Source: a virus. Taken from it: 40,633 bases of DNA. A model generated the notes under the pieces. The model made no database searches. It saw nothing but the letters and a program-made list of their open reading frames with translations, and was not told the origin of the DNA. This document shows, piece by piece, positions 14,418 to 34,255 of the stretch; positions within the stretch are counted from its first letter, which is position 1; each line of letters opens with the position of its first letter. The DNA lies in UHGV virus genome UHGV-0140992; one strand, written 5' to 3'. A program made the position numbers and the translations under genes.

Positions 14418-14494
14418 TTACCTCTAAGGTAATTGAAAACCATATAAGACACGAAATCAATAGAGTTTAGAATATTTTGTTACCTTGTAGGTAA
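14418..14494. promoter_or_regulatory. two operator-type sites TTACCTCTAAGGTAA (14418..14432) and TTACCTTGTAGGTAA (14480..14494)
   Basis: perfect half-sites, 62 bp apart, between the P-like gene end and the DUF1064 gene start. Confidence 0.45.
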
Positions 14495-16451: not shown

Positions 16452-16682
16452 TCATGAGTAGAAGAAGTATGCCAGTTCTGCTTTTGAGCGCAGCCATTGT
16501 CTTGTTTTACAGGCTTTAAAAAGCCCATTCATCAATACTTTACCTGGCATTTTGCGCTTGCCTGTTAAGTGAGTCTGGATATAGTGACTCGTCGTTCCGG
16601 CTTCCTGTGCGAAGGCTTCACGCTCATCCGGAGTAAGTGCAAGCCAGTGCTTTTTGAAATCGAAATGTCCGTTATCGCTCAT
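16452..16682 (-). CDS. Cro-like regulator, 76 aa
   Basis: small protein transcribed divergently from the repressor across the operator cluster. Confidence 0.55.
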   Translation of the reverse strand: MSDNGHFDFKKHWLALTPDEREAFAQEAGTTSHYIQTHLTGKRKMPGKVLMNGLFKACKTRQWLRSKAELAYFFYS

Positions 16683-16836: not shown

Positions 16837-17421
16837 ATGAAAAGTATCCAGGACGTCCGCAGGCAAAATCTCAACGACTTGATCGACCGTGAATTCAATG
16901 GTGTTCAGACGCGGATGGCAGAAAAACTTGGAACTCAGGCAAATCTGGTAAACCGCTGGGCTCTTGGCAAGAAGGTTATCGGCGACCAGGTTGCACGAAA
17001 AATTGAAGCTGCCGCCAATAAACCCCGTAACTGGCTTGATATTGATCGTTCGCTTTCTCAGGAGGGTTTTCAGCCTGTCGGCCCGAGCGATATAGGTCAG
17101 CTGGCGGCTCACAACCTGGAACGCTGGATGAGCGAAAGCCGCGACCTTTCAACACAGGGAAAACTTCACCGCGCATCCGGCGTCGCCCAGGTGACAATCA
17201 GCCGCCTGTTAAACAATGAGGTCAGCGTTTCCATTTCCACCCTGGAGAATGTTGCATCCGCATTCGGGCGTCACGGATATGAACTACTGATTCACCCGCA
17301 CGACCCTGCGACTATCAACTATGACCGCTCACGCTACGCATTGTTACCCGAAACCGAGAAAGCAAAGATCGAAAGTTACATTGAATTTGTCATCAACCAG
17401 AACGAAAAAAGCAAACAATAA
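16837..17421 (+). CDS. CI-like immunity repressor, 194 aa, two HTH-like segments, no S24 peptidase domain
   Basis: divergent from the Cro-like gene across the operators; HTH-type N-terminus; no Ala-Gly / GDSM / Lys autocleavage motifs seen. Confidence 0.7.
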   Translation: MKSIQDVRRQNLNDLIDREFNGVQTRMAEKLGTQANLVNRWALGKKVIGDQVARKIEAAANKPRNWLDIDRSLSQEGFQPVGPSDIGQLAAHNLERWMSESRDLSTQGKLHRASGVAQVTISRLLNNEVSVSISTLENVASAFGRHGYELLIHPHDPATINYDRSRYALLPETEKAKIESYIEFVINQNEKSKQ

Positions 17422-24179: not shown

Positions 24180-24477
24180 GTTTAGACCTCGATACTTTAA
24201 AAATTTGAACGACGTTACCGCGCGTTTTAATAACCGCAGCCAGCATGACAGCGTTGATAATGACCTCAGATAAATCCACAGCCATTGGCGTACGTAACCA
24301 GATTGCATAGGCGACTCGAACAGGAATACTGGCCGCAGCAACAATCAGGAAATAAGCAAGCCATCCTCCCCACCTTCGATGTTGAGAGCCGTTACGCCGG
24401 AATGTGACAACGCGAATTGCTATGCCAGTGCAAATAACTGCATTGGTGATAAGCAAAAAAAACTCATGCGTTACCAT
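24169..24477 (-). CDS. holin-like membrane protein, 102 aa
   Basis: three predicted TM segments; overlaps the endolysin start. Confidence 0.5.
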
Positions 24478-24868
24478 CGTCTTTTCTCCCCGGAATTAAC
24501 TCGCGTGGATTATCGGAACGGTGATAGAGCCATATACCAATACGCACAGCGACAATTGCTGACACGAATGCGCCTGCAGAGAAAACAATCCCTTTTTCAA
24601 AAGAGTCCTGCGTGATGGTAGGGATCAGGCTGGCTATGCCGATAAGAATTGATGCTGCTGGTTTGTAAAAGAGAAGGCCGCAAAGAAAGCTGAGCATCGA
24701 CAGGAGCACCCGGCGACGGATGGGGTACTCTACTGCAGAGGTAACAAAAATTACCGCCCCAGCCAAAGCCCCTAAAGCAACCTCCGGAGGGGCACCTGCA
24801 ATAACCGCAGCAAGAGAACTAAAACTAAGCAACTGATTTAATTGCTCACTTGTTACTTGAGCAGACAT
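24464..24868 (-). CDS. holin-like membrane protein, 134 aa
   Basis: multiple hydrophobic helices; first gene of the lysis cassette. Confidence 0.45.
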   Translation of the reverse strand: MSAQVTSEQLNQLLSFSSLAAVIAGAPPEVALGALAGAVIFVTSAVEYPIRRRVLLSMLSFLCGLLFYKPAASILIGIASLIPTITQDSFEKGIVFSAGAFVSAIVAVRIGIWLYHRSDNPRELIPGRKDDGNA

Positions 24869-25149
24869 ACTTTCTCCTGTTTACTATCTATAAGCCAGTC
24901 AATTATTGATGACTAAACCCGCATAGTAAACCATATATGAATCATTATTGTTCCATATCATATATCTCAATAAAAGTACTAATGATTTTACAGAACGAGC
25001 CAGCAGAGTGGGGGCAGTTGTACAGGAACCATAGACTTAATTTTGTATTTAATAATGCTATGGTGTAATAAACCTGAACATGTATTTAAAATACGTACTG
25101 ATTCATGATAGAATTCAAAGATAACTTTTCACAAACTCCGTTTTTGATA

Positions 25150-25178
25150 CCCGCAAAATATTGCGGGCTTTTTTTTAA
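25150..25178 (+). terminator. plus-strand intrinsic terminator abutting the tailspike stop
   Basis: cccgcaa-aata-ttgcggg followed by CTTTTTTTTAA; U-run only on the plus strand. Confidence 0.45.
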
Positions 25179-28100
25179 CGTTCTTCCAGAGACTGAATCC
25201 GCTCTTTTATCTTATCCATTTCTCTGCGCTGCCATGCTGCCTCGATATAGAATAAGAGATCAGGTCTGACCCCCCATCTAGATCCTGCTGGCGTTATTTC
25301 AACGCGCTCAATGATGTCTTCCATTACCATCACTGGATTATCATCCTCATCAACAATGATGCTCCCGTCATTATCAGTCAGCGGCATTTCCCTTTGGCCA
25401 GTAATGACGTCATCATATACTGCGGGATAATCGTCATAGCAAAGAAAGGCATAGCGGCATGTTGTGCTTTCTTCTTCCATGAGTCCGTGAGAAATAAGAA
25501 CATCACGAAGTTGCTGCGCGATTACACCATGATGTATCCTCGCCCCTTCTTCCCCCTTTATAGCGACAGCGTTCAGCCATTTATAAGCGATATACCTGAC
25601 GTCACCCCAGGCATCCAGCAATGCTTCGTCAGGAGAGACCGGCTCTGTCTTTAATGTTCCGTCACTGGTAACCACAGGATTGGAGCCAAGATAAACTGTC
25701 GAGAACCTGTTTCCCGGACCACCAAGAGCATTTACATTATCAAGATAAGGTTTAACATCTCCGTTCTCAAAAAGATGTTCGAGTGCGTTATATACCGCGC
25801 GACGTGGAGTACTGCTTCCGGAACCATGCAACGTTATCATTGCACCATCTGCTGAAGACGTTATTTCACCGCCGCTAACGATTAATCTCTGAGCGGTAAC
25901 ATCATCAGACGGTACTTTCTTCGCAATAATGGCGTAATTACCCTCAAGTTTGACTTCCGCGCGAACTTGTCCTGATGTACCTGCATGGACAGTCAGTGAC
26001 TGGACGGCAACATCATCTGTGAAATCAACGGGTACAGGAACCGTCCTCACGCCTGACGTCGACATAAAAGTAGGAAGCGTTCTGTTAGGAGTGGCTCCGT
26101 AGACAAAATCCCTTGAAACAAATTCTTCCTGTTTAATTTTCACCCTGAAACAATACAAATCAGCCGGGTGACCATCGTGAACATAAGGATATTTTCTGTT
26201 GTTATCCCCTATGCTCCATGGGTTTAGAAAGTCTTCCCCACCGAAAATGTAGTACAGCCAGTTGTCTTTGATACAAACTGAACCAACACCAACTGCAGAG
26301 TTAACTATTCCGCCCTGATAAATCTGATCAGTAACATTAACCCACTCTACATTATCCAGACTCCACTCATTGACGTTAACTCTGGTCATAAATGTTCTTG
26401 GATAATTTCCTGCATAACGGTTATCAGGTTCTCCTCCTTCCCACTCACCAAATGCGCGCTCACTGCCAAAAATAATCAGCTCATCGCCAACTTTGGCAAA
26501 AGGAAGGTTTGAGTGATGAACATTATTTGGGAAGCGAAGAGAATTCCATGATGTACCTAAATCAGAGCTTCTGTGCAATGAACTACCGGGTTGAGTACTT
26601 AATGTCCCCCTGGTCGTCAGATACAGAATGCCATCATAATATTTTACACATGGCTCAGATGCATTCGCCTCATATTCTGCAGGTATGCGTCTGCGAACAA
26701 AGCTACCAGGAGAACCGAAAGCATCAGAGAAATAGAGTATCCCAAGCTCGCGTGGACCAATATCACCATTATGGTAGCCAACAGCAAAACTGTTATCGCT
26801 AATCGTCGCAAAACTGTGAATCTCAGTAACAGGAGTGCTTCCGTCAACAAAAGAAGGAATAGTTCCAAGACTGGTTTTTCTCCATGGTGACGAGTGAAAT
26901 GATGTACCAAAACTCCAGTATCTACCCTCGTTATTCTGATCCACATCCTGGGTATTTTGCGTCGTAACTGTAAAAGTATTTTTATCAATAACAGTAGTCA
27001 CCGTCATATTCCCGGTAACACCTGTAACACCAGAGTTTGAGAAGTTGACAAAATCACCAGCAAATAATCCGTGATCAGTAATGCGAATATAAGCGACTTG
27101 CTGATTTGCTGCTTTCGTTATACCACCATAAGCGCGAAGGCTGCGACTCATTGGGCGATCCCACAACTCTGCAACCTGCAGTTTATTTCCGCTCACGGTC
27201 CGCGTCTCAATTACAGCAAAAAGGCGATTTCTGACAACCCCCATACTCATGCAGTGATAGTTAACTGTGGGATAGTTTTCATGTAAATCTGTAAGCCATT
27301 CCGGCGTTGTCCAGGTCTTCCCGTCATCTCCTGAGCGAACCCATGCAACATGGAGGTTATTTACACCATGGCGGTCTCCAGCCATAAAAGGCGCATAGAT
27401 GACATTGTCATATACAAACGTTTTATCCTGCGTCCAGGCGTTGTACCACGGTGTATCTGTAATTTTAAATAACTCTCCCTGGATAAAATCTTCAGAAGCA
27501 TAAAAAAGAGGCTGGCCCGGTATTCTCTCAAATAAAAAACGAGCATTTTTAAATCGACTGACATCCGGAAGAGTTGATACTTTAAAAGTAAGCCCTAATC
27601 CGTCAATTTTATAACCTGGAGATGAGGCTTCAAGGCACGCGCTTATTGCAGTGGAATCGTCATTTATACCATCACCAACAGCTCCAAAATCTTTGGGGCT
27701 AATAGCATCACGCATTTTATCCTGGAACGTTCGGTACACAGCCCCAGAACCATACTGAATAAACCAACCAAAACCACCAACAACCCCGGCGATTGCAGCA
27801 TCGACATAATTACGCATTGAGCGATTATTTACAGCGTCCTGCTCAAATGATGGATCTGCAAGGTTAGAAATTTTGTTTTGCTTTGCATCGTAATATTTTG
27901 CAAGCAAAGATGGTTTCATCAATGCACGTCTGAACCACCCAAAACATTGCTGGATCAGCATCGTCAGGTAGTCAAAGGCATCTTCATGCACTTCGGGGAA
28001 AAATTTTCCCTGATTGCGAAGGTCTGTCTCCTGCACTACATCAAGCACACGATCTATCGTAATTCGCCATCCAGTAGCAAGCGGAGACGGAAGAACCACA

Positions 28101-28294
28101 GAACCGCCACTATAAGTGCCCGCCCCAGTTACCGTATAACCGGTATCCAGAACCAATTCTGTTACGTTTCCGTTCAGGTCAGACACCTGAACAACCAGGT
28201 CTGATTTTCTGAAAATTCGAAAAGTATACGGAAACGATGTCGTAACGCCGTTACCGGTGTATTCGTTGTGGTCAACTTCGGTTGAGACCGTCAT
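25175..28294 (-). CDS. tailspike endo-N-acetylneuraminidase (K1 endosialidase) with C-terminal intramolecular chaperone domain, 1039 aa
   Basis: long blocks match recalled phage K1F endosialidase (FERIPGQPLFYASEDFIQGELFKITDTPWYNAW ... EWLTDLHENYPTVNYHCMSMGV); chaperone-domain motifs (LGSNPVVTS, TEPV, DAWGDV) near the C-terminus. Confidence 0.85.
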   Translation of the reverse strand: MTVSTEVDHNEYTGNGVTTSFPYTFRIFRKSDLVVQVSDLNGNVTELVLDTGYTVTGAGTYSGGSVVLPSPLATGWRITIDRVLDVVQETDLRNQGKFFPEVHEDAFDYLTMLIQQCFGWFRRALMKPSLLAKYYDAKQNKISNLADPSFEQDAVNNRSMRNYVDAAIAGVVGGFGWFIQYGSGAVYRTFQDKMRDAISPKDFGAVGDGINDDSTAISACLEASSPGYKIDGLGLTFKVSTLPDVSRFKNARFLFERIPGQPLFYASEDFIQGELFKITDTPWYNAWTQDKTFVYDNVIYAPFMAGDRHGVNNLHVAWVRSGDDGKTWTTPEWLTDLHENYPTVNYHCMSMGVVRNRLFAVIETRTVSGNKLQVAELWDRPMSRSLRAYGGITKAANQQVAYIRITDHGLFAGDFVNFSNSGVTGVTGNMTVTTVIDKNTFTVTTQNTQDVDQNNEGRYWSFGTSFHSSPWRKTSLGTIPSFVDGSTPVTEIHSFATISDNSFAVGYHNGDIGPRELGILYFSDAFGSPGSFVRRRIPAEYEANASEPCVKYYDGILYLTTRGTLSTQPGSSLHRSSDLGTSWNSLRFPNNVHHSNLPFAKVGDELIIFGSERAFGEWEGGEPDNRYAGNYPRTFMTRVNVNEWSLDNVEWVNVTDQIYQGGIVNSAVGVGSVCIKDNWLYYIFGGEDFLNPWSIGDNNRKYPYVHDGHPADLYCFRVKIKQEEFVSRDFVYGATPNRTLPTFMSTSGVRTVPVPVDFTDDVAVQSLTVHAGTSGQVRAEVKLEGNYAIIAKKVPSDDVTAQRLIVSGGEITSSADGAMITLHGSGSSTPRRAVYNALEHLFENGDVKPYLDNVNALGGPGNRFSTVYLGSNPVVTSDGTLKTEPVSPDEALLDAWGDVRYIAYKWLNAVAIKGEEGARIHHGVIAQQLRDVLISHGLMEEESTTCRYAFLCYDDYPAVYDDVITGQREMPLTDNDGSIIVDEDDNPVMVMEDIIERVEITPAGSRWGVRPDLLFYIEAAWQRREMDKIKERIQSLEER

Positions 28295-29518: not shown

Positions 29519-29626
29519 TTACCTTAAAGGTAATATCTTGCTTTCAGGTGATCAAGCGTTAAACGCCACCAACCAAATACGGTTGATTTTGATATTTCTC
29601 CGCGTTTATCATTACCTTTGCGGTAA
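29519..29626. promoter_or_regulatory. operator-type sites TTACCTTAAAGGTAA (29519..29533) and TTACCTTTGCGGTAA (29612..29626)
   Basis: perfect half-sites between the divergent 242-aa gene and the Bro-N gene. Confidence 0.45.
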
Positions 29627-29880: not shown

Positions 29881-29895
29881 GTGGAGATAACCACC

Positions 29896-30606
29896 ATGGC
29901 TAATGCTCAAACTTCCATCTTCAAATTTGAATCTGTTAACCCTATCCGTTCCATCATTATCGATGGCCAACCATGGTTTGTAGCCCAAGACGTTTGTAGT
30001 GCGCTGCGTATCCAAAACGTCACCCAAGCACTTGAAAAACTGGATGATGATGAAAGGTCTATGTTCAACATAGGGCATGAACATCGTGCAATTTTTGACA
30101 GCCGAGTAAAAGAGATCAACATCATCTCCGAGTCAGGCCTCTACACACTGATCCTCCGCTGCCGCGACGCAGTGACACCAGGCACTATCCCCTACCGCTT
30201 TCGTAAATGGGTTACGGGTGAGGTTCTTCCTCAGATCCGCCGCACCGGAAGCTACATTAAAAACTCGCTCCCGCAGGAAGAACGCATAAAGATGGTTGCC
30301 GACCAGGTGGCCAACGCCACGGCGTCAGCAGTAATGCAGGCGATGAAGATAGAGAACAAAACCTACAGCGCCCCACTGAATCCCGGCTACCGCAGCCTGA
30401 TTCATTCGCCGTCTGGTGTTCTCGGCCTGACGGAGAACTCACTGCTGATGAATCTGCTGAACCAGTTACAGGACGACGGGCACGACGTATCGGGCGCGGC
30501 GGCGGAGCTGACCACCATGTTCTGCTACATCGTCGGTGTGAGCAAATGCCTGCGTGATATCCAGACCCACGCGGAATACATCAACGACAAGGCAGGGTTC
30601 TTCTGA
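29896..30606 (+). CDS. Bro-N domain antirepressor-like protein, 236 aa (ATG at 29896)
   Basis: N-terminal Bro-N-type motifs (FKFESVNPIRSIIIDGQPWFVAQDVCSAL); C-terminal domain paralogous to the 28490 gene. Confidence 0.65.
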   Translation: MANAQTSIFKFESVNPIRSIIIDGQPWFVAQDVCSALRIQNVTQALEKLDDDERSMFNIGHEHRAIFDSRVKEINIISESGLYTLILRCRDAVTPGTIPYRFRKWVTGEVLPQIRRTGSYIKNSLPQEERIKMVADQVANATASAVMQAMKIENKTYSAPLNPGYRSLIHSPSGVLGLTENSLLMNLLNQLQDDGHDVSGAAAELTTMFCYIVGVSKCLRDIQTHAEYINDKAGFF

Positions 30607-30613
30607 CGGGCGG

Positions 30614-30640
30614 TGGCACAGGGATGTGCCTTTAAATAAT
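30614..30640 (+). terminator. weak intrinsic terminator after the Bro-N gene
   Basis: ggcaca-ggga-tgtgcc followed by TTTAAATAATT. Confidence 0.3.
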
Positions 30641-30678
30641 TCTGTACAGATTGCAGACTGTGGGTGAATAGCGTACTA

Positions 30679-30693
30679 TTACCTTAAAGGTAA
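30679..30693. promoter_or_regulatory. operator-type site TTACCTTAAAGGTAA
   Basis: identical to 29519; immediately before AGGAGG and the ATG at 30706. Confidence 0.45.
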
Positions 30694-30705
30694 AGGAGGC
30701 GCGAT

Positions 30706-30873
30706 ATGACAGCGTTGAAAAATCGTACTCAGCACAATGAACAAGCCAAGCAATGCTGGGATGTCATTGGAAAAGTTATGCTTGGCCGCGCAAGCAAAGA
30801 GCGCGACAAGGATATGGTTTACCAGACAGGAACATCTTTCAGCGACTTCAAGGCGGCATTTCGCTCCAAATAG
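30706..30873 (+). CDS. possible small protein, 55 aa (MTALKNRTQHNEQAKQCWDVIGKVMLGRASK...)
   Basis: AGGAGG RBS 6 nt upstream; operator directly upstream; below the ORF-track cutoff. Confidence 0.4.
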   Translation: MTALKNRTQHNEQAKQCWDVIGKVMLGRASKERDKDMVYQTGTSFSDFKAAFRSK

Positions 30874-30893
30874 AAGCACATCAGGAGTTTTCC

Positions 30894-31334
30894 TTGAAGT
30901 TTAACATTAGAATATCTAATAGTTTTCTACATGGGGAAAGCAACACCCCTTTCGCTGTAGACGGACCTTTCCTTACTGATGATGAAATAAAAATCATACA
31001 AAGTTTTTTAGAGGATGTTGCCAATGGAAGGGCGCTTGTTGGAAAAAACAAGCCCTCGTGGGTTGATGATAACCATGATAAAATTCCCGGCTCAGACAAT
31101 TATGAGCAAGAGAATTATTGGCATTATCATTGTGGGCCAACATGGTATCCAAACACATTTAAGAATTATACCATTAACTTAAATTTCAACCCTGGCGGAA
31201 GGCATTCTAATGAATGCATTCATTATGCAAAAAATGATAATGAAATTGTCATTGTTGGATTTTCAAGAGAACACATACCTTTCCTTTCATCAGATGGAAA
31301 CAACAATCCGCTTTTTAATGATGAAGAAGAATAG
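30894..31334 (+). CDS. hypothetical AT-rich moron protein, about 146 aa (TTG start; track ORF begins 30753)
   Basis: AGGAG RBS 7 nt before in-frame TTG; markedly AT-rich codons versus flanks; acidic C-terminus. Confidence 0.4.
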   Translation: MKFNIRISNSFLHGESNTPFAVDGPFLTDDEIKIIQSFLEDVANGRALVGKNKPSWVDDNHDKIPGSDNYEQENYWHYHCGPTWYPNTFKNYTINLNFNPGGRHSNECIHYAKNDNEIVIVGFSREHIPFLSSDGNNNPLFNDEEE

Positions 31335-31426
31335 CCCGCGCTGCGGGCTTTTTTGTGGACGAAACAAAAGTCAGTGCTACACTCATTGACGCCACATTGA
31401 GGTGGCTTATAGATGGAAATTTCACA

Positions 31427-31588
31427 ATGAAAAAAGCATTTGCTGCACTGTTCGTTTTGTTGTCTCTGGTAGCTTCAACTCAGGCCTTTGCCGGTCGTTG
31501 TCAGCACGACAGCGACACTGCTGCTGACGGCTCCCGCTGCGGTGGGCGTTCTGCGGACTCCCGTCCGGGCGGCGGTGGCATTCGTTAA
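31427..31588 (+). CDS. small secreted Gly/Cys-containing peptide, 53-aa precursor with signal peptide
   Basis: MKKAFAALFVLLSLVASTQAFA signal-like N-terminus with AFA-G cleavage context; 31-aa Gly/Asp/Arg-rich mature part with two Cys. Confidence 0.35.
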   Translation: MKKAFAALFVLLSLVASTQAFAGRCQHDSDTAADGSRCGGRSADSRPGGGGIR

Positions 31589-31594
31589 AAACAA

Positions 31595-31610
31595 GGCCGC
31601 GAAAGCGGCC
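31595..31610 (-). terminator. hairpin GGCCGC-GAAA-GCGGCC with minus-strand U-run
   Basis: 6-bp GC stem, GAAA loop; TTGTTTTTAA follows on the minus strand. Confidence 0.4.
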
Positions 31611-31611
31611 T

Positions 31612-31623
31612 GTGACATGTCAC
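31612..31623. repeat. perfect palindrome GTGACATGTCAC, copy 3 of 3
   Basis: exact 12-mer between the small hydrophobic ORF stop and the hairpin. Confidence 0.6.
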
Positions 31624-31630
31624 GCTCACG

Positions 31631-31771
31631 TTATGACAAGCCTATGTACCCTGCTACACCAGATAATATCATAATAACTGCAACAGCAAATTCGCCATCG
31701 TCAATGATACATTTACGGTTCATAACGCCAAGTGCAACAAGCGCAAACACAACAAGAATAAAAGCAATCAT
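31631..31771 (-). CDS. possible small hydrophobic protein, 46 aa (MIAFILVVFALVALGVMNRKCIIDDGEFAVAVIMILSGVAGYIGLS)
   Basis: GGATGAGAA RBS-like context 10 nt after the 824-aa gene stop; two hydrophobic segments; below the ORF-track cutoff. Confidence 0.3.
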   Translation of the reverse strand: MIAFILVVFALVALGVMNRKCIIDDGEFAVAVIMILSGVAGYIGLS

Positions 31772-31780
31772 TTCTCATCC

Positions 31781-34255
31781 TTATTGCGGAGTGACATCCT
31801 GTGGTCGCCACCAGTATGTCTGGTTAAACTCTTTCTTCGAACGTTGCTCCATTTTACGCAAATAACCTGGTGAAAAATACTCCTGCATCTGGTTAAAGAT
31901 CATGTGATCGAGAGCCGCCTTCAAGTACCAGAGATTCGCACCTGGCATCAGACCTTTCCCCAGCTTAACCAGATCACCACCAGTCTGCTCACTCTTCCCT
32001 TCCACAGCATTTAACGGTATGCCCTGAGCAATCTTCACTACGTCATCAACCAGACCAGCTACCGGGCCAAGCATCGACGCCAGCGCGCCGCTTCCGTACC
32101 TAGTGTGATCTGACAATAAAAAGTCACCGTAAAGGCCAAGACCACCACCTTTCAGTAGAGCACCAAGCCAAAATTTAGCAGCATCTTCTCCTGTCATCTC
32201 GCGAGGATTACGACCAGACGCAAGGTCGTTAAGTTGCTGCGACAAAGCGCCAAGAATGGTCGTACTGGCAATAAACGTCGCAATATATGCCGCACGCCCA
32301 CCAGCAGACGGCATACCCATAGCGCGTGACCAGTGACGCATAACCACCGAGATAGGGAACGATTTAAACAGGAAAACACTTCTCGTTAATTCACCTTTCC
32401 ATGTTCCACGCTGAATACCAGAACCGGTTATCAGTTGCTCACGTGCTCCCGGTGTAATAACAGCCATATCAACTTCTTCAGTTACGGCACCGAGCAGTTT
32501 ACGCATTGCCTCAAATTTCACGCGTTCAGGCTCACCAAGATGTTTAACTGCTGAATCAGGGATACGCATAATGCTTTCCGGTGTCAGCATCGTATTATTA
32601 CCGTTCCCCCAGTCCTCCTGTTTCGCCAGCTTCCATACGCTCCAGTCTGTGTCAGTAATCCCTTTGCTTTTCAGGATACGAAAATCAGAGTCATCGAGGC
32701 TACGAAGGTCTGGTGTACGTGACACTACTTCTCCCAGGCTTCCCATCATGGTTACGCCATAGGCGCGCTTGTGCGCATCTGACCATGCTGTAAGCCCACT
32801 GGCACGCATTACCGCCGTTGCCGCCCAACGAGACACTGACGGCCCCATATTATCCATCGCCCAGCGGTTAACGCTGCCAAGTAGAGATTCCATCGCCAGA
32901 CCAGCGCGGCGCGCCCGCGCAAGTTCTGTACGGTTCGTTGGGTCCATAGCTTCAAGCTGGTTGCGGAATAACTGGTTCATTGGAAGGTTGGTAACCTTCG
33001 CAGACAGATACATGGTTCCAAGATCAGAGAACGATGACAGCAACGCGGATCCGAGTCTGCTGGCAACCAGCCAGTTGCGGATATTGTCAGACCATCGCGC
33101 GATGTGCGGATTCGCTACAGGCTGTGTCTTTCCGGAAATAAAGTTGTACAGATTCTCTGTGTTGTTCGCCAGCCGCTCGACTTTACCGGTTTTACTCGGG
33201 TTAGCTGTTGCCGTTTCTGCCTTCACCTGATCAAGAAGAGAGCGGAAAACATGATCGGGGTTTGGGCCATATGTTTCCACCAGTGCAATATCTTTACTGA
33301 TACCTTCCAGGTGACCGACCATGATTTCCCATAGAGAGCGATCGCCATAAAGTTGCTGATATTGCAGATAGGAATCTGCATCTTTGAAATGTATCTGTCG
33401 TGATGCATTACCACGGTTAGCACGTGCGCCGGAAATTCGCATTCCGGTATCAGTAAGCTTATTCAGCCCACCAGTAGCGATCGTGTTATAAGCCTCTCCA
33501 AGAAATGAAGACAACTCGGCATCGTTCATCAGTTGTCCATCGGCTCGGATATAATATTTGCGATCCAGCTTACCTATAACATCGCTAACCCACTTATCCT
33601 TTGATACTGCCCCAACCTTTTCCATAGAATGATGTTGAGGGATCCCCCAGTTTTCGAGATAGCCAATGTCCCCACCAGCATCATTAAACCGGCGGCGCAG
33701 CAGCTCTGTAACTTCTCTCCACGCCTTAGCACCGTTTCTTGCTTTAGCATTGCCAGTATTTTGCCCCCGCATTTCATATACCAGGTCACGTACGCCCGCT
33801 TCATCTTCAAACAGACCAAAAAAGCGAGGATCAACTGCTTCGAATGCCTCCTGCAATTGACTCAATGCATAATCACGGGTGGCTTTTGTTCTGGATTCAA
33901 CAGAGAGGAAATTAGATTTACCGTCTGCATTAAAAGCTATAGTACGGTTAAGAGCGCCAAGTTTCCCATCAGCCCCTTGATAGCTATTGATAAATTTATC
34001 CAATCTCTGACGCGCGGCTATAGTGAGAGCCACACGACGTTTCTTTAATGCCGCTTCTCGCTGTAATTCTTCAGATGCCAATTGTGCTGCTCGATATAGC
34101 CGCTCTGATTCGGAAAGTTGTCTCCACGACATCGGGTCATCACGAGCAATGGAGCGCATATTTCGATAAATGCGGTCTTCAATGTTCTGTATTTCTCGCG
34201 CCGTTAACGTGCGCTGCGCCGCCTGCTGGACCGCTTGTATACATTCCTGTCTCAT
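31781..34255 (-). CDS. internal virion / ejection protein, 824 aa
   Basis: large co-oriented protein in the gp14-gp16-equivalent block after the tail tube genes. Confidence 0.55.
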   Translation of the reverse strand: MRQECIQAVQQAAQRTLTAREIQNIEDRIYRNMRSIARDDPMSWRQLSESERLYRAAQLASEELQREAALKKRRVALTIAARQRLDKFINSYQGADGKLGALNRTIAFNADGKSNFLSVESRTKATRDYALSQLQEAFEAVDPRFFGLFEDEAGVRDLVYEMRGQNTGNAKARNGAKAWREVTELLRRRFNDAGGDIGYLENWGIPQHHSMEKVGAVSKDKWVSDVIGKLDRKYYIRADGQLMNDAELSSFLGEAYNTIATGGLNKLTDTGMRISGARANRGNASRQIHFKDADSYLQYQQLYGDRSLWEIMVGHLEGISKDIALVETYGPNPDHVFRSLLDQVKAETATANPSKTGKVERLANNTENLYNFISGKTQPVANPHIARWSDNIRNWLVASRLGSALLSSFSDLGTMYLSAKVTNLPMNQLFRNQLEAMDPTNRTELARARRAGLAMESLLGSVNRWAMDNMGPSVSRWAATAVMRASGLTAWSDAHKRAYGVTMMGSLGEVVSRTPDLRSLDDSDFRILKSKGITDTDWSVWKLAKQEDWGNGNNTMLTPESIMRIPDSAVKHLGEPERVKFEAMRKLLGAVTEEVDMAVITPGAREQLITGSGIQRGTWKGELTRSVFLFKSFPISVVMRHWSRAMGMPSAGGRAAYIATFIASTTILGALSQQLNDLASGRNPREMTGEDAAKFWLGALLKGGGLGLYGDFLLSDHTRYGSGALASMLGPVAGLVDDVVKIAQGIPLNAVEGKSEQTGGDLVKLGKGLMPGANLWYLKAALDHMIFNQMQEYFSPGYLRKMEQRSKKEFNQTYWWRPQDVTPQ

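Follow-up and report, generated by a model that had tools for sequence, protein, structure and literature searches.

A two-gene cassette behind a prophage-repressor-type operator in a Uetakevirus genome encodes a candidate RelE-fold toxin and a conserved partner

Two described prophage toxin-antitoxin (TA) systems come closest to the locus considered here. The paaR2-paaA2-parE2 system of the cryptic prophage CP-933P sets a ParE toxin and a short antitoxin that lacks a DNA-binding domain inside a CI/Cro circuit like that of lambda (PMC8630535), and PaaA2 illustrates that not every TA system relies on a DNA-binding antitoxin for its autoregulation (PMC8630535). PfiT/PfiA of Pf4 is a prophage accessory TA that affects phage production and immunity (PMC7264888). 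We have analysed a two-gene cassette, orfA-orfB, that occupies positions 30,679 to 31,334 of the virus genome UHGV-0140992; the whole 40,633-nucleotide stretch is referred to below as the window. The window is a temperate podophage of E. coli, epsilon15/phiV10-like and of the genus Uetakevirus, and the ~2 kb around the cassette shares 98% identity with phages HEMP4 and phiv142-3, with partial matches to TL-2011b, phiV10, ZX5 and EC.W1-9. By analogy, paaR2-paaA2-parE2 offers the nearest documented logic for the control of orfA-orfB, but its TA genes are co-transcribed with a CI-like repressor in the immunity region and so are on in the repressed state, whereas the present cassette is a remote target whose predicted state in the lysogen is off; that system also has three genes and a different toxin family, while orfA-orfB has no third gene. 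PfiT/PfiA is alike in being accessory to a prophage and in having a toxin of the ParE/RelE fold; unlike the present pair it autoregulates through its own palindrome and belongs to a filamentous phage, and it has no sequence relation to orfA-orfB. We propose with moderate confidence that orfA-orfB is a swappable, type II TA-like cargo made up of a RelE-fold RNase toxin and its inhibitor and gated by the prophage repressor.

The orfA-orfB pair is flanked by one promoter and one terminator, and its features, in window coordinates, are as follows.

30615-30630, plus strand: hairpin GGCAC-AGGGAT-GTGCC, directly 3' of the ant stop codon; left boundary of the variable cargo slot
30651-30679, plus strand: putative sigma-70 promoter, with -35 TTGCAG at 30651-30656, a 17-nt spacer and -10 TACTAT at 30674-30679
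30679-30693: operator TTACCTTAAAGGTAA (TTACCTT-A-AAGGTAA, a perfect 7+1+7 palindrome)
30694-30699, plus strand: Shine-Dalgarno sequence AGGAGG of orfA, 6 nt before the ATG at 30706
30706-30873, plus strand: orfA, 55 amino acids, ATG start; candidate antitoxin or partner
30883-30887, plus strand: Shine-Dalgarno sequence AGGAG of orfB, 6 nt 5' of the TTG
30894-31334, plus strand: orfB, 146 amino acids, TTG start 20 nt past the orfA stop; candidate RNase toxin
31333-31355, plus strand: strong intrinsic terminator with a 7-bp stem (6 GC pairs) and a 3-nt loop (hairpin at 31333-31349), then TTTTTT; closes the cassette

The predicted promoter is weak by comparison with consensus (3/6 matches at -35 and 4/6 at -10). 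A preliminary description of this stretch, made by a model from the letters alone, had placed here a 55-codon open reading frame (ORF) with a perfect operator and an AGGAGG ribosome-binding site, followed by a second ORF of roughly 146 codons. The palindrome, the AGGAGG and the ATG at 30706 all lie where that description requires, and the second ORF runs from the TTG at 30894 to 31334, with the same MKF... start as the public cluster representative P0001 of the orfB family. Both genes carry the label 'hypothetical protein' in RefSeq E. coli genomes (PGAP), and in the phiv142-3 record (MN187550; L001 3194-3352) a 52-amino-acid ORF is called within orfB rather than the full 146-codon TTG gene.

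The same description took the cassette to be controlled by an operator, and the operator is indeed present ahead of orfA; it is not private to the cassette, since the same site recurs throughout the phage. Its core, TTACC-N5-GGTAA, is found 14 times in the window at no more than one mismatch against 0.76 expected (a number that none of 100 shuffles attains), and the full 15-mer palindrome 19 times at no more than three mismatches against 1.4 expected. The operator copies, all of which read as intergenic, and the regulatory genes near them are given here.

7224, 10329/10347, 14418/14480, 16719/16767, 17479/17541, 22796, 28399, 29519/29612 and 30679: operator copies (n=14)
16452-16682, minus strand: cro-like gene, divergent from the cI-like gene
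16837-17421: cI-like repressor gene, 194 amino acids, with HTH_3 and Cro/YdaS-type helix-turn-helix (HTH) matches
29881-30606, plus strand: ant, Bro-N antirepressor (Pfam Bro-N, E 1e-19)

Operators 16719 and 16767 are in the region that separates the cro-like from the cI-like gene, and a degenerate third copy stands between the two at ~24 bp from each; 17479 and 17541 come just 3' of the repressor gene and before the rightward early genes; and 29519 and 29612 lie upstream of ant, where the copy at 29519 is identical to that of the cassette. The sites at 14418 (on the reverse strand), 17541, 29612 and 30679 share a common geometry, in which the final base of the -10 hexamer doubles as the first T of TTACC. 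An identical promoter sequence drives the YafO-like cargo of TL-2011b, and operators of the TTACC-N5-GGTAA type are present in phiV10, which has no cassette. The epsilon15 genome paper is reported to give an ATTACC...GGTAAT operator consensus. A search of the repressor product (16837-17421) returned no peptidase domain match. By its sequence and position the cassette site (30679-30693) looks like that of a member of a Uetakevirus repressor regulon, namely a cI/cro-type site that overlaps a putative promoter. On these sequence grounds the palindrome is a phage-wide repressor operator and not a TA operator belonging to the cassette. We rejected the latter as a general explanation, given that the palindrome is found genome-wide and in the cassette-less phiV10 and that many cassette homologs are without it.

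Binding of the prophage repressor at this site would be expected to repress the cassette promoter sterically. Because the palindrome is the phage-wide operator, the cassette is predicted to be silent in a lysogen and to be transcribed, like ant, upon infection or induction, and such predicted silence speaks against a role in lysogenic conversion, immunity or exclusion that would call for constitutive expression.

The sole annotation of orfB is a match to phrog_5954 (PHROG 5954, function unknown). It has no detectable sequence similarity to RelE, YoeB, YafQ, HigB or ParE; sequence and profile searches of the PDB with orfB were negative, and Foldseek comparison of its model with BFVD viral structures gave no match at E <= 0.001. 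The AlphaFold2 model, built from the family alignment (pLDDT 93, pTM 0.88), has the beta1-alpha-alpha-beta2-beta3-beta4 order and antiparallel sheet of RelE/ParE proteins and can be superimposed on solved RelE, YoeB, HigB or ParE structures. Its structural neighbours are overwhelmingly TA toxins, PfiT (9w3a_A) among them. Judged by this model, orfB is a protein of the RelE/ParE superfamily (BECR fold) in a family that has no name. At 146 amino acids, with extra N-terminal and loop elements, it is longer than the ~85-120 amino acids of RelE/ParE toxins. A search of 5.8 billion proteins (90% database) gave 34 orfB clusters, all hypothetical and from Enterobacterales and Pasteurellaceae, and a profile search of 1.84 billion representatives gave 118 family clusters (50% identity); the family spans Enterobacterales, Pasteurellaceae, Neisseriaceae and Aeromonas.

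The motifs GKNKPSW, WHYHCG, IHY and S..H.PF are conserved in this family; H77, H79 and H127 (H127-128) are invariant even in its most distant members, and N52, K53, Y78, H110 and Y111 are nearly so. In the model the conserved His, Lys and Tyr residues (including K51, K53 and Y111) are located on beta2 (75-79), on beta3 (108-114) and just past beta4. In YoeB, YafQ and HigB the catalytic residues sit on these same elements, a comparison that draws on family knowledge and not on superposition. The invariant His, Lys and Tyr residues suggest catalysis, and with this predicted fold orfB is most likely an RNase. Distant relatives from low-GC organisms (P0086, P0108, P0106, P0110, P0118, P0124, P0125 and P0141) have extra domains, either an N-terminal Cys-rich, zinc-ribbon-like region of ~60-95 amino acids or a C-terminal one of ~100 amino acids; thus the RelE-fold core also occurs in single-polypeptide architectures.

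The product of orfA is a basic protein (isoelectric point, pI, 9.8) that matches phrog_8607 (PHROG 8607, function unknown). Searches of Pfam, NCBIfam, PADLOC and PDB gave no match to it and no DNA-binding domain is recognisable; in this it differs from the partners of RelE/ParE toxins, which have ribbon-helix-helix, HTH or Phd-type domains, and it does not have the means of autoregulation expected of a type II antitoxin. An Rfam scan of 30400-31800 gave nothing above threshold, and so provides no evidence for an RNA antitoxin. The pairing itself is highly conserved. In 103 of 103 loci a partner ORF lies upstream of the orfB homolog and either ends 0-31 nt before it or overlaps it, as would be expected of a co-transcribed type II TA pair; these loci come from Uetakevirus-like phages (of Escherichia, Enterobacter, Kluyvera, Pectobacterium and Erwinia), lambdoid Klebsiella prophages, Pasteurellaceae, Neisseria/Kingella and Aeromonas. 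Over their C-terminal ~32 residues the partners follow a common pattern (roughly [VI]-L-[GS]-R, 6-8 residues, D/S..Y/F, 4-5 residues, S-[FLV]-x-[DE]-[FIL]..A), while the N-terminus varies from almost nothing (55-66 amino acids in total) to ~100 and to 160-216 amino acids. Antitoxins usually show this pattern, in which a toxin-binding C-terminal segment is conserved behind a variable N-terminus. Sequence and profile searches of the PDB with the long-type partner were without match. Profile alignment (hhalign) of the short orfA type with the ~100-amino-acid Klebsiella type gave a probability of 96% (E 1e-9), and a hidden Markov model (HMM) built from short partners matched only Klebsiella-type partners (E 0.011-0.06), its sole hits among 10,303 ORFs. 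The alignments thus argue that partner homology is solid within the Enterobacterales and moderate for Pasteurellaceae.

In 11 of 12 distinct Uetakevirus-like contexts orfB starts with TTG, and in the remaining one with GTG; the start often follows the partner's stop without a gap (TGA-TTG). Such a weak start and stop-start juxtaposition fit translational coupling with the partner made in excess. Among 5426 complete E. coli genomes, 77 contain at least 80% of the cassette and a further 134 hold a fragment only, usually a promoter/operator stub. In Pasteurellaceae bacterium LFhippo2 (L009/L013 1-3369) the partner and the orfB homolog lie directly 3' of a gene for a 2935-amino-acid polyvalent protein with MuF_C, ART-PolyVal and LPD domains, a context typical of phage and conjugative-element conflict systems.

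The position after ant was described beforehand as a hotspot, and close relatives do hold other cargo, or none, at this place. The hairpin at 30615-30630 is kept in TL-2011b and EC.W1-9, and the sequences diverge beyond it. In TL-2011b the slot holds a YafO-like pair with a YafO_toxin match, also of RelE fold. In EC.W1-9 (L106 1990-2831) and ZX5 (L107 155-956) it holds overlapping genes of 108 and 167 codons, the product of the latter having a predicted membrane domain, DUF2335 (E 1.4e-15); a promoter close to consensus (TTTACA-17-TATACT) precedes the pair, as does the operator TTACCCGATTGGTAA. Every cargo type examined at the slot carries a TTACC-N5-GGTAA operator. The slot of phiV10 is empty: its sequence passes from the GGGCGG after ant to the last codons of a 53-amino-acid gene (below), and lacks the promoter, the operator, the cassette and most of the 53-amino-acid gene (L003 2975-3000). 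Since both phiV10 junctions fall at a GGGCGG direct repeat that is present in the window (30609-30614 and 31566-31571), phiV10 looks like a deletion derivative that arose by microhomology, which these junctions suggest rather than an insertion in the present phage.

The orfB and YafO-like families are not significantly similar in sequence (hhalign E 0.013, probability 3.5%), although the weak alignment pairs WHYH with RHTH and TS..IHY with TSD.LVY. None of the 84 orfB-family members examined matches the YafO HMM (PF13957), and the partner proteins of orfB and of the TL-2011b YafO pair are unrelated by eye. As far as sequence comparison can tell, the slot after ant is a cargo hotspot at which at least two sequence-unrelated RelE-fold pairs are interchangeable.

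The order of genes in this region is tail fibre (minus strand), a small ORF, ant, the cassette, a gene for a 53-amino-acid protein with a signal peptide, and virion and injection proteins (minus strand). The features of the 53-amino-acid gene are these.

31386-31413: putative promoter of the 53-amino-acid gene, TTGACG at 31386-31391 and TATAGA at 31408-31413; no operator there
31427-31588, plus strand: gene for the 53-amino-acid protein, whose N-terminus MKKAFAALFVLLSLVASTQAFA resembles a signal peptide and whose tail is rich in Gly, Arg and Asp

The protein matches PHROG 14503 ('membrane associated protein, moron'), and Pfam, NCBIfam and PADLOC scans of it were all without match. Because its putative promoter has no operator, this gene is probably expressed in lysogens.

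An abrupt fall in GC content at the second gene had been read as a sign of recent horizontal acquisition. The fall is real: orfB has 35.6% GC (30.6% at third codon positions) against 48.9% for the window (z = -3.57 in 441-nt windows), just 0.17% of 441-nt windows have so low a value, and the fall sets in exactly at orfB, with orfA at a normal 47%. The reading does not survive comparison with homologs. Those of Enterobacterales have GC fractions of 0.36-0.43 against 0.46-0.56 in their flanks, and those of Pasteurellaceae 0.32-0.37 against 0.38-0.43; in nearly every lineage, down to 33-50% identity, orfB homologs are AT-richer than their flanks while the partner genes are not. Thus, AT-richness is a long-standing trait of the orfB family and no footprint of recent transfer into this phage, and it is the presence/absence polymorphism among near-identical phages, not AT content, that demonstrates mobility. 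The only other stretch of the window that is as AT-rich (24772-25277, GC down to 34%) spans the gap from a 134-amino-acid minus-strand ORF (24464-24868) to the 3' end of the 1039-amino-acid tail-fibre gene (25175-28294), and probably marks a further mosaic junction or the boundary of a host-range module.

Outside the Uetakevirus-like phages the module is found in other regulatory settings. Klebsiella lambdoid prophages of two immunity types (L188/L189 9391-10486) carry in their nin region a three-gene moron, consisting of a 95-amino-acid gene, the ~100-amino-acid partner and an orfB homolog, with an upstream terminator and a perfect ATTACCATTAAGGTAAT palindrome before the module; the diverged copy L066 keeps the palindrome. 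A search for a corresponding repressor in Klebsiella lambdoid phages returned only near-identical Uetakevirus repressors. In other lineages, different palindromes stand beside a -10 hexamer and the Shine-Dalgarno sequence of the partner: ATCACC-N3-GGTGAT in L054 and L058 (at about -218 from the orfB homolog), ACAACC-CC-GGTTGT before the cassette in L056/L057 (-252) and TTGCTCA-N4-TGAGCAA in L059 (-260). These arrangements hint that the module is regularly set under a lineage-specific operator.

The earlier guess that the pair might be a TA module fits both the RelE/ParE fold modelled for orfB and the constant presence of an orfA-like partner next to its homologs. The mechanism that we propose would run as follows. 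OrfB would be a RelE-fold, probably nucleolytic toxin, and orfA its cognate protein inhibitor, acting through the conserved C-terminal segment of ~32 residues. Translation of orfA from a strong ATG/AGGAGG start and of orfB from a weak, conserved TTG at the orfA stop would keep the partner in excess. In place of a DNA-binding antitoxin, the two-HTH repressor of the phage would bind the operator over the -10/+1 region of the cassette promoter, so that the module would be off in a stable lysogen and would come on together with ant at infection or induction.

Several observations weigh against this proposal. Neither orfB (in Pfam, NCBIfam and PADLOC-DB v2) nor its relatives (30 + 54 members, against the named toxin families of Pfam and NCBIfam) gave any match, and orfB itself is recognised by none of the ParE_toxin/RelE, YoeB, HigB, YafQ and YafO families (Pfam and NCBIfam). 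The charges of the pair, with an acidic orfB (pI 4.9, net charge -11) and a basic orfA, are opposite to those of canonical RelE/RelB; the acidity of orfB is awkward for a ribosomal A-site binder, and because canonical RelE-type toxins are basic, it may be that orfB does not act at the ribosomal A site. There are acidic free RNases with a related fold, such as RNase Sa and T1. Alignment of the short orfA type with the Pasteurellaceae type is moderate (hhalign probability 43%, P 2.5e-4, in the same register). In the Klebsiella lambdoid prophages CI is LexA-like and no other such palindrome occurs within 20 kb, so that the palindrome may not have the same binder everywhere. A literature search returned no experimental report on toxicity or neutralisation for this module. 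Finally, were the antitoxin labile, silencing of the TA by the repressor would poison each new lysogen, so either orfA would be stable or the logic would be different.

The inverted charge and the problem of new-lysogen poisoning keep alive a non-addictive reading in which orfB would be an early lytic effector of RelE fold, an RNase or an RNA- or ribosome-binding protein that serves host takeover or counter-defence, with orfA as its cofactor, chaperone or timing inhibitor. We consider this rather unlikely. It would account for the atypical charges and the negative PADLOC results, and for an operator that predicts expression only at infection or induction, with ant; moreover, all three cargo types of the slot are operator-bearing, the DUF2335 pair included, so that the slot seems reserved for repressor-gated functions. 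The layout, on the other hand, is that of a classic TA (the upstream partner is small, the genes are tightly coupled and the start of the toxin is weak), the structural neighbours of the orfB model are overwhelmingly TA toxins, an alternative cargo at the slot has a YafO_toxin match, and the same pair is found in non-Uetakevirus contexts without this operator. A clearly unlikely extension, which we regard as speculative, is that the ant-proximal slot of Uetakevirus is a dedicated socket for repressor-gated RelE-fold nuclease modules and the orfB family a new class of early effectors that bias the choice between lysis and lysogeny. OrfB would then cleave host RNA or disarm a function of the host or a co-resident phage, the repressor would replace antitoxin autoregulation, and the pair would be no addiction or abortive-infection (Abi) module. 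If this were true, the orphan operator in heteroimmune Klebsiella prophages would enable the repressor of one prophage to govern the toxin of another.

Expression in lysogens through leaky or partial repression, as an Abi, superinfection-exclusion or prophage-stabilising addiction system, would be in line with the Abi and immunity roles that the preliminary description raised, and we find it quite improbable. The pair is a two-gene, TA-like unit in a prophage accessory hotspot, prophage TAs can stabilise prophages or modulate phage production (PMC8630535, PMC7264888), and the neighbouring 53-amino-acid moron has an operator-free putative promoter; yet the operator of the cassette is perfect, lies on -10/+1 and is identical to a copy before ant, a gene that must be tightly off in a lysogen, PADLOC was negative, and the sequence gives no sign of a second, operator-free promoter. 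We think it very improbable that the polarity of the pair is reversed, with the small basic orfA as effector or toxin and the acidic orfB as neutraliser or immunity protein. Upstream-toxin orders do exist (higBA and mqsRA) and a small basic protein with a larger acidic one would suit such an order, but the toxin fold, the invariant His, Lys and Tyr and the weak TTG start all belong to orfB, and the antitoxin-typical conservation of only the C-terminal ~32 residues, behind an N-terminus that ranges from nothing to ~180 amino acids, belongs to the partner. We therefore retain the repressor-gated, type II TA-like cargo as the preferred reading: the modelled fold and the conserved pairing support it, and its function is predicted.

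This interpretation overturns no concept, as there are precedents for prophage TAs, for diversity of the RelE fold and for TA control of the CI type. If it is confirmed, an unnamed and fairly widespread family of RelE-fold toxins and a new partner motif would join the catalogue of such systems. The cassette would also be a natural TA-like module under the control of a prophage master repressor, and as such would act at infection or induction and not in the resting lysogen. Finally, a hotspot whose left boundary is fixed and whose cargoes each carry the same type of operator would be an aid for mining repressor-gated accessory genes.

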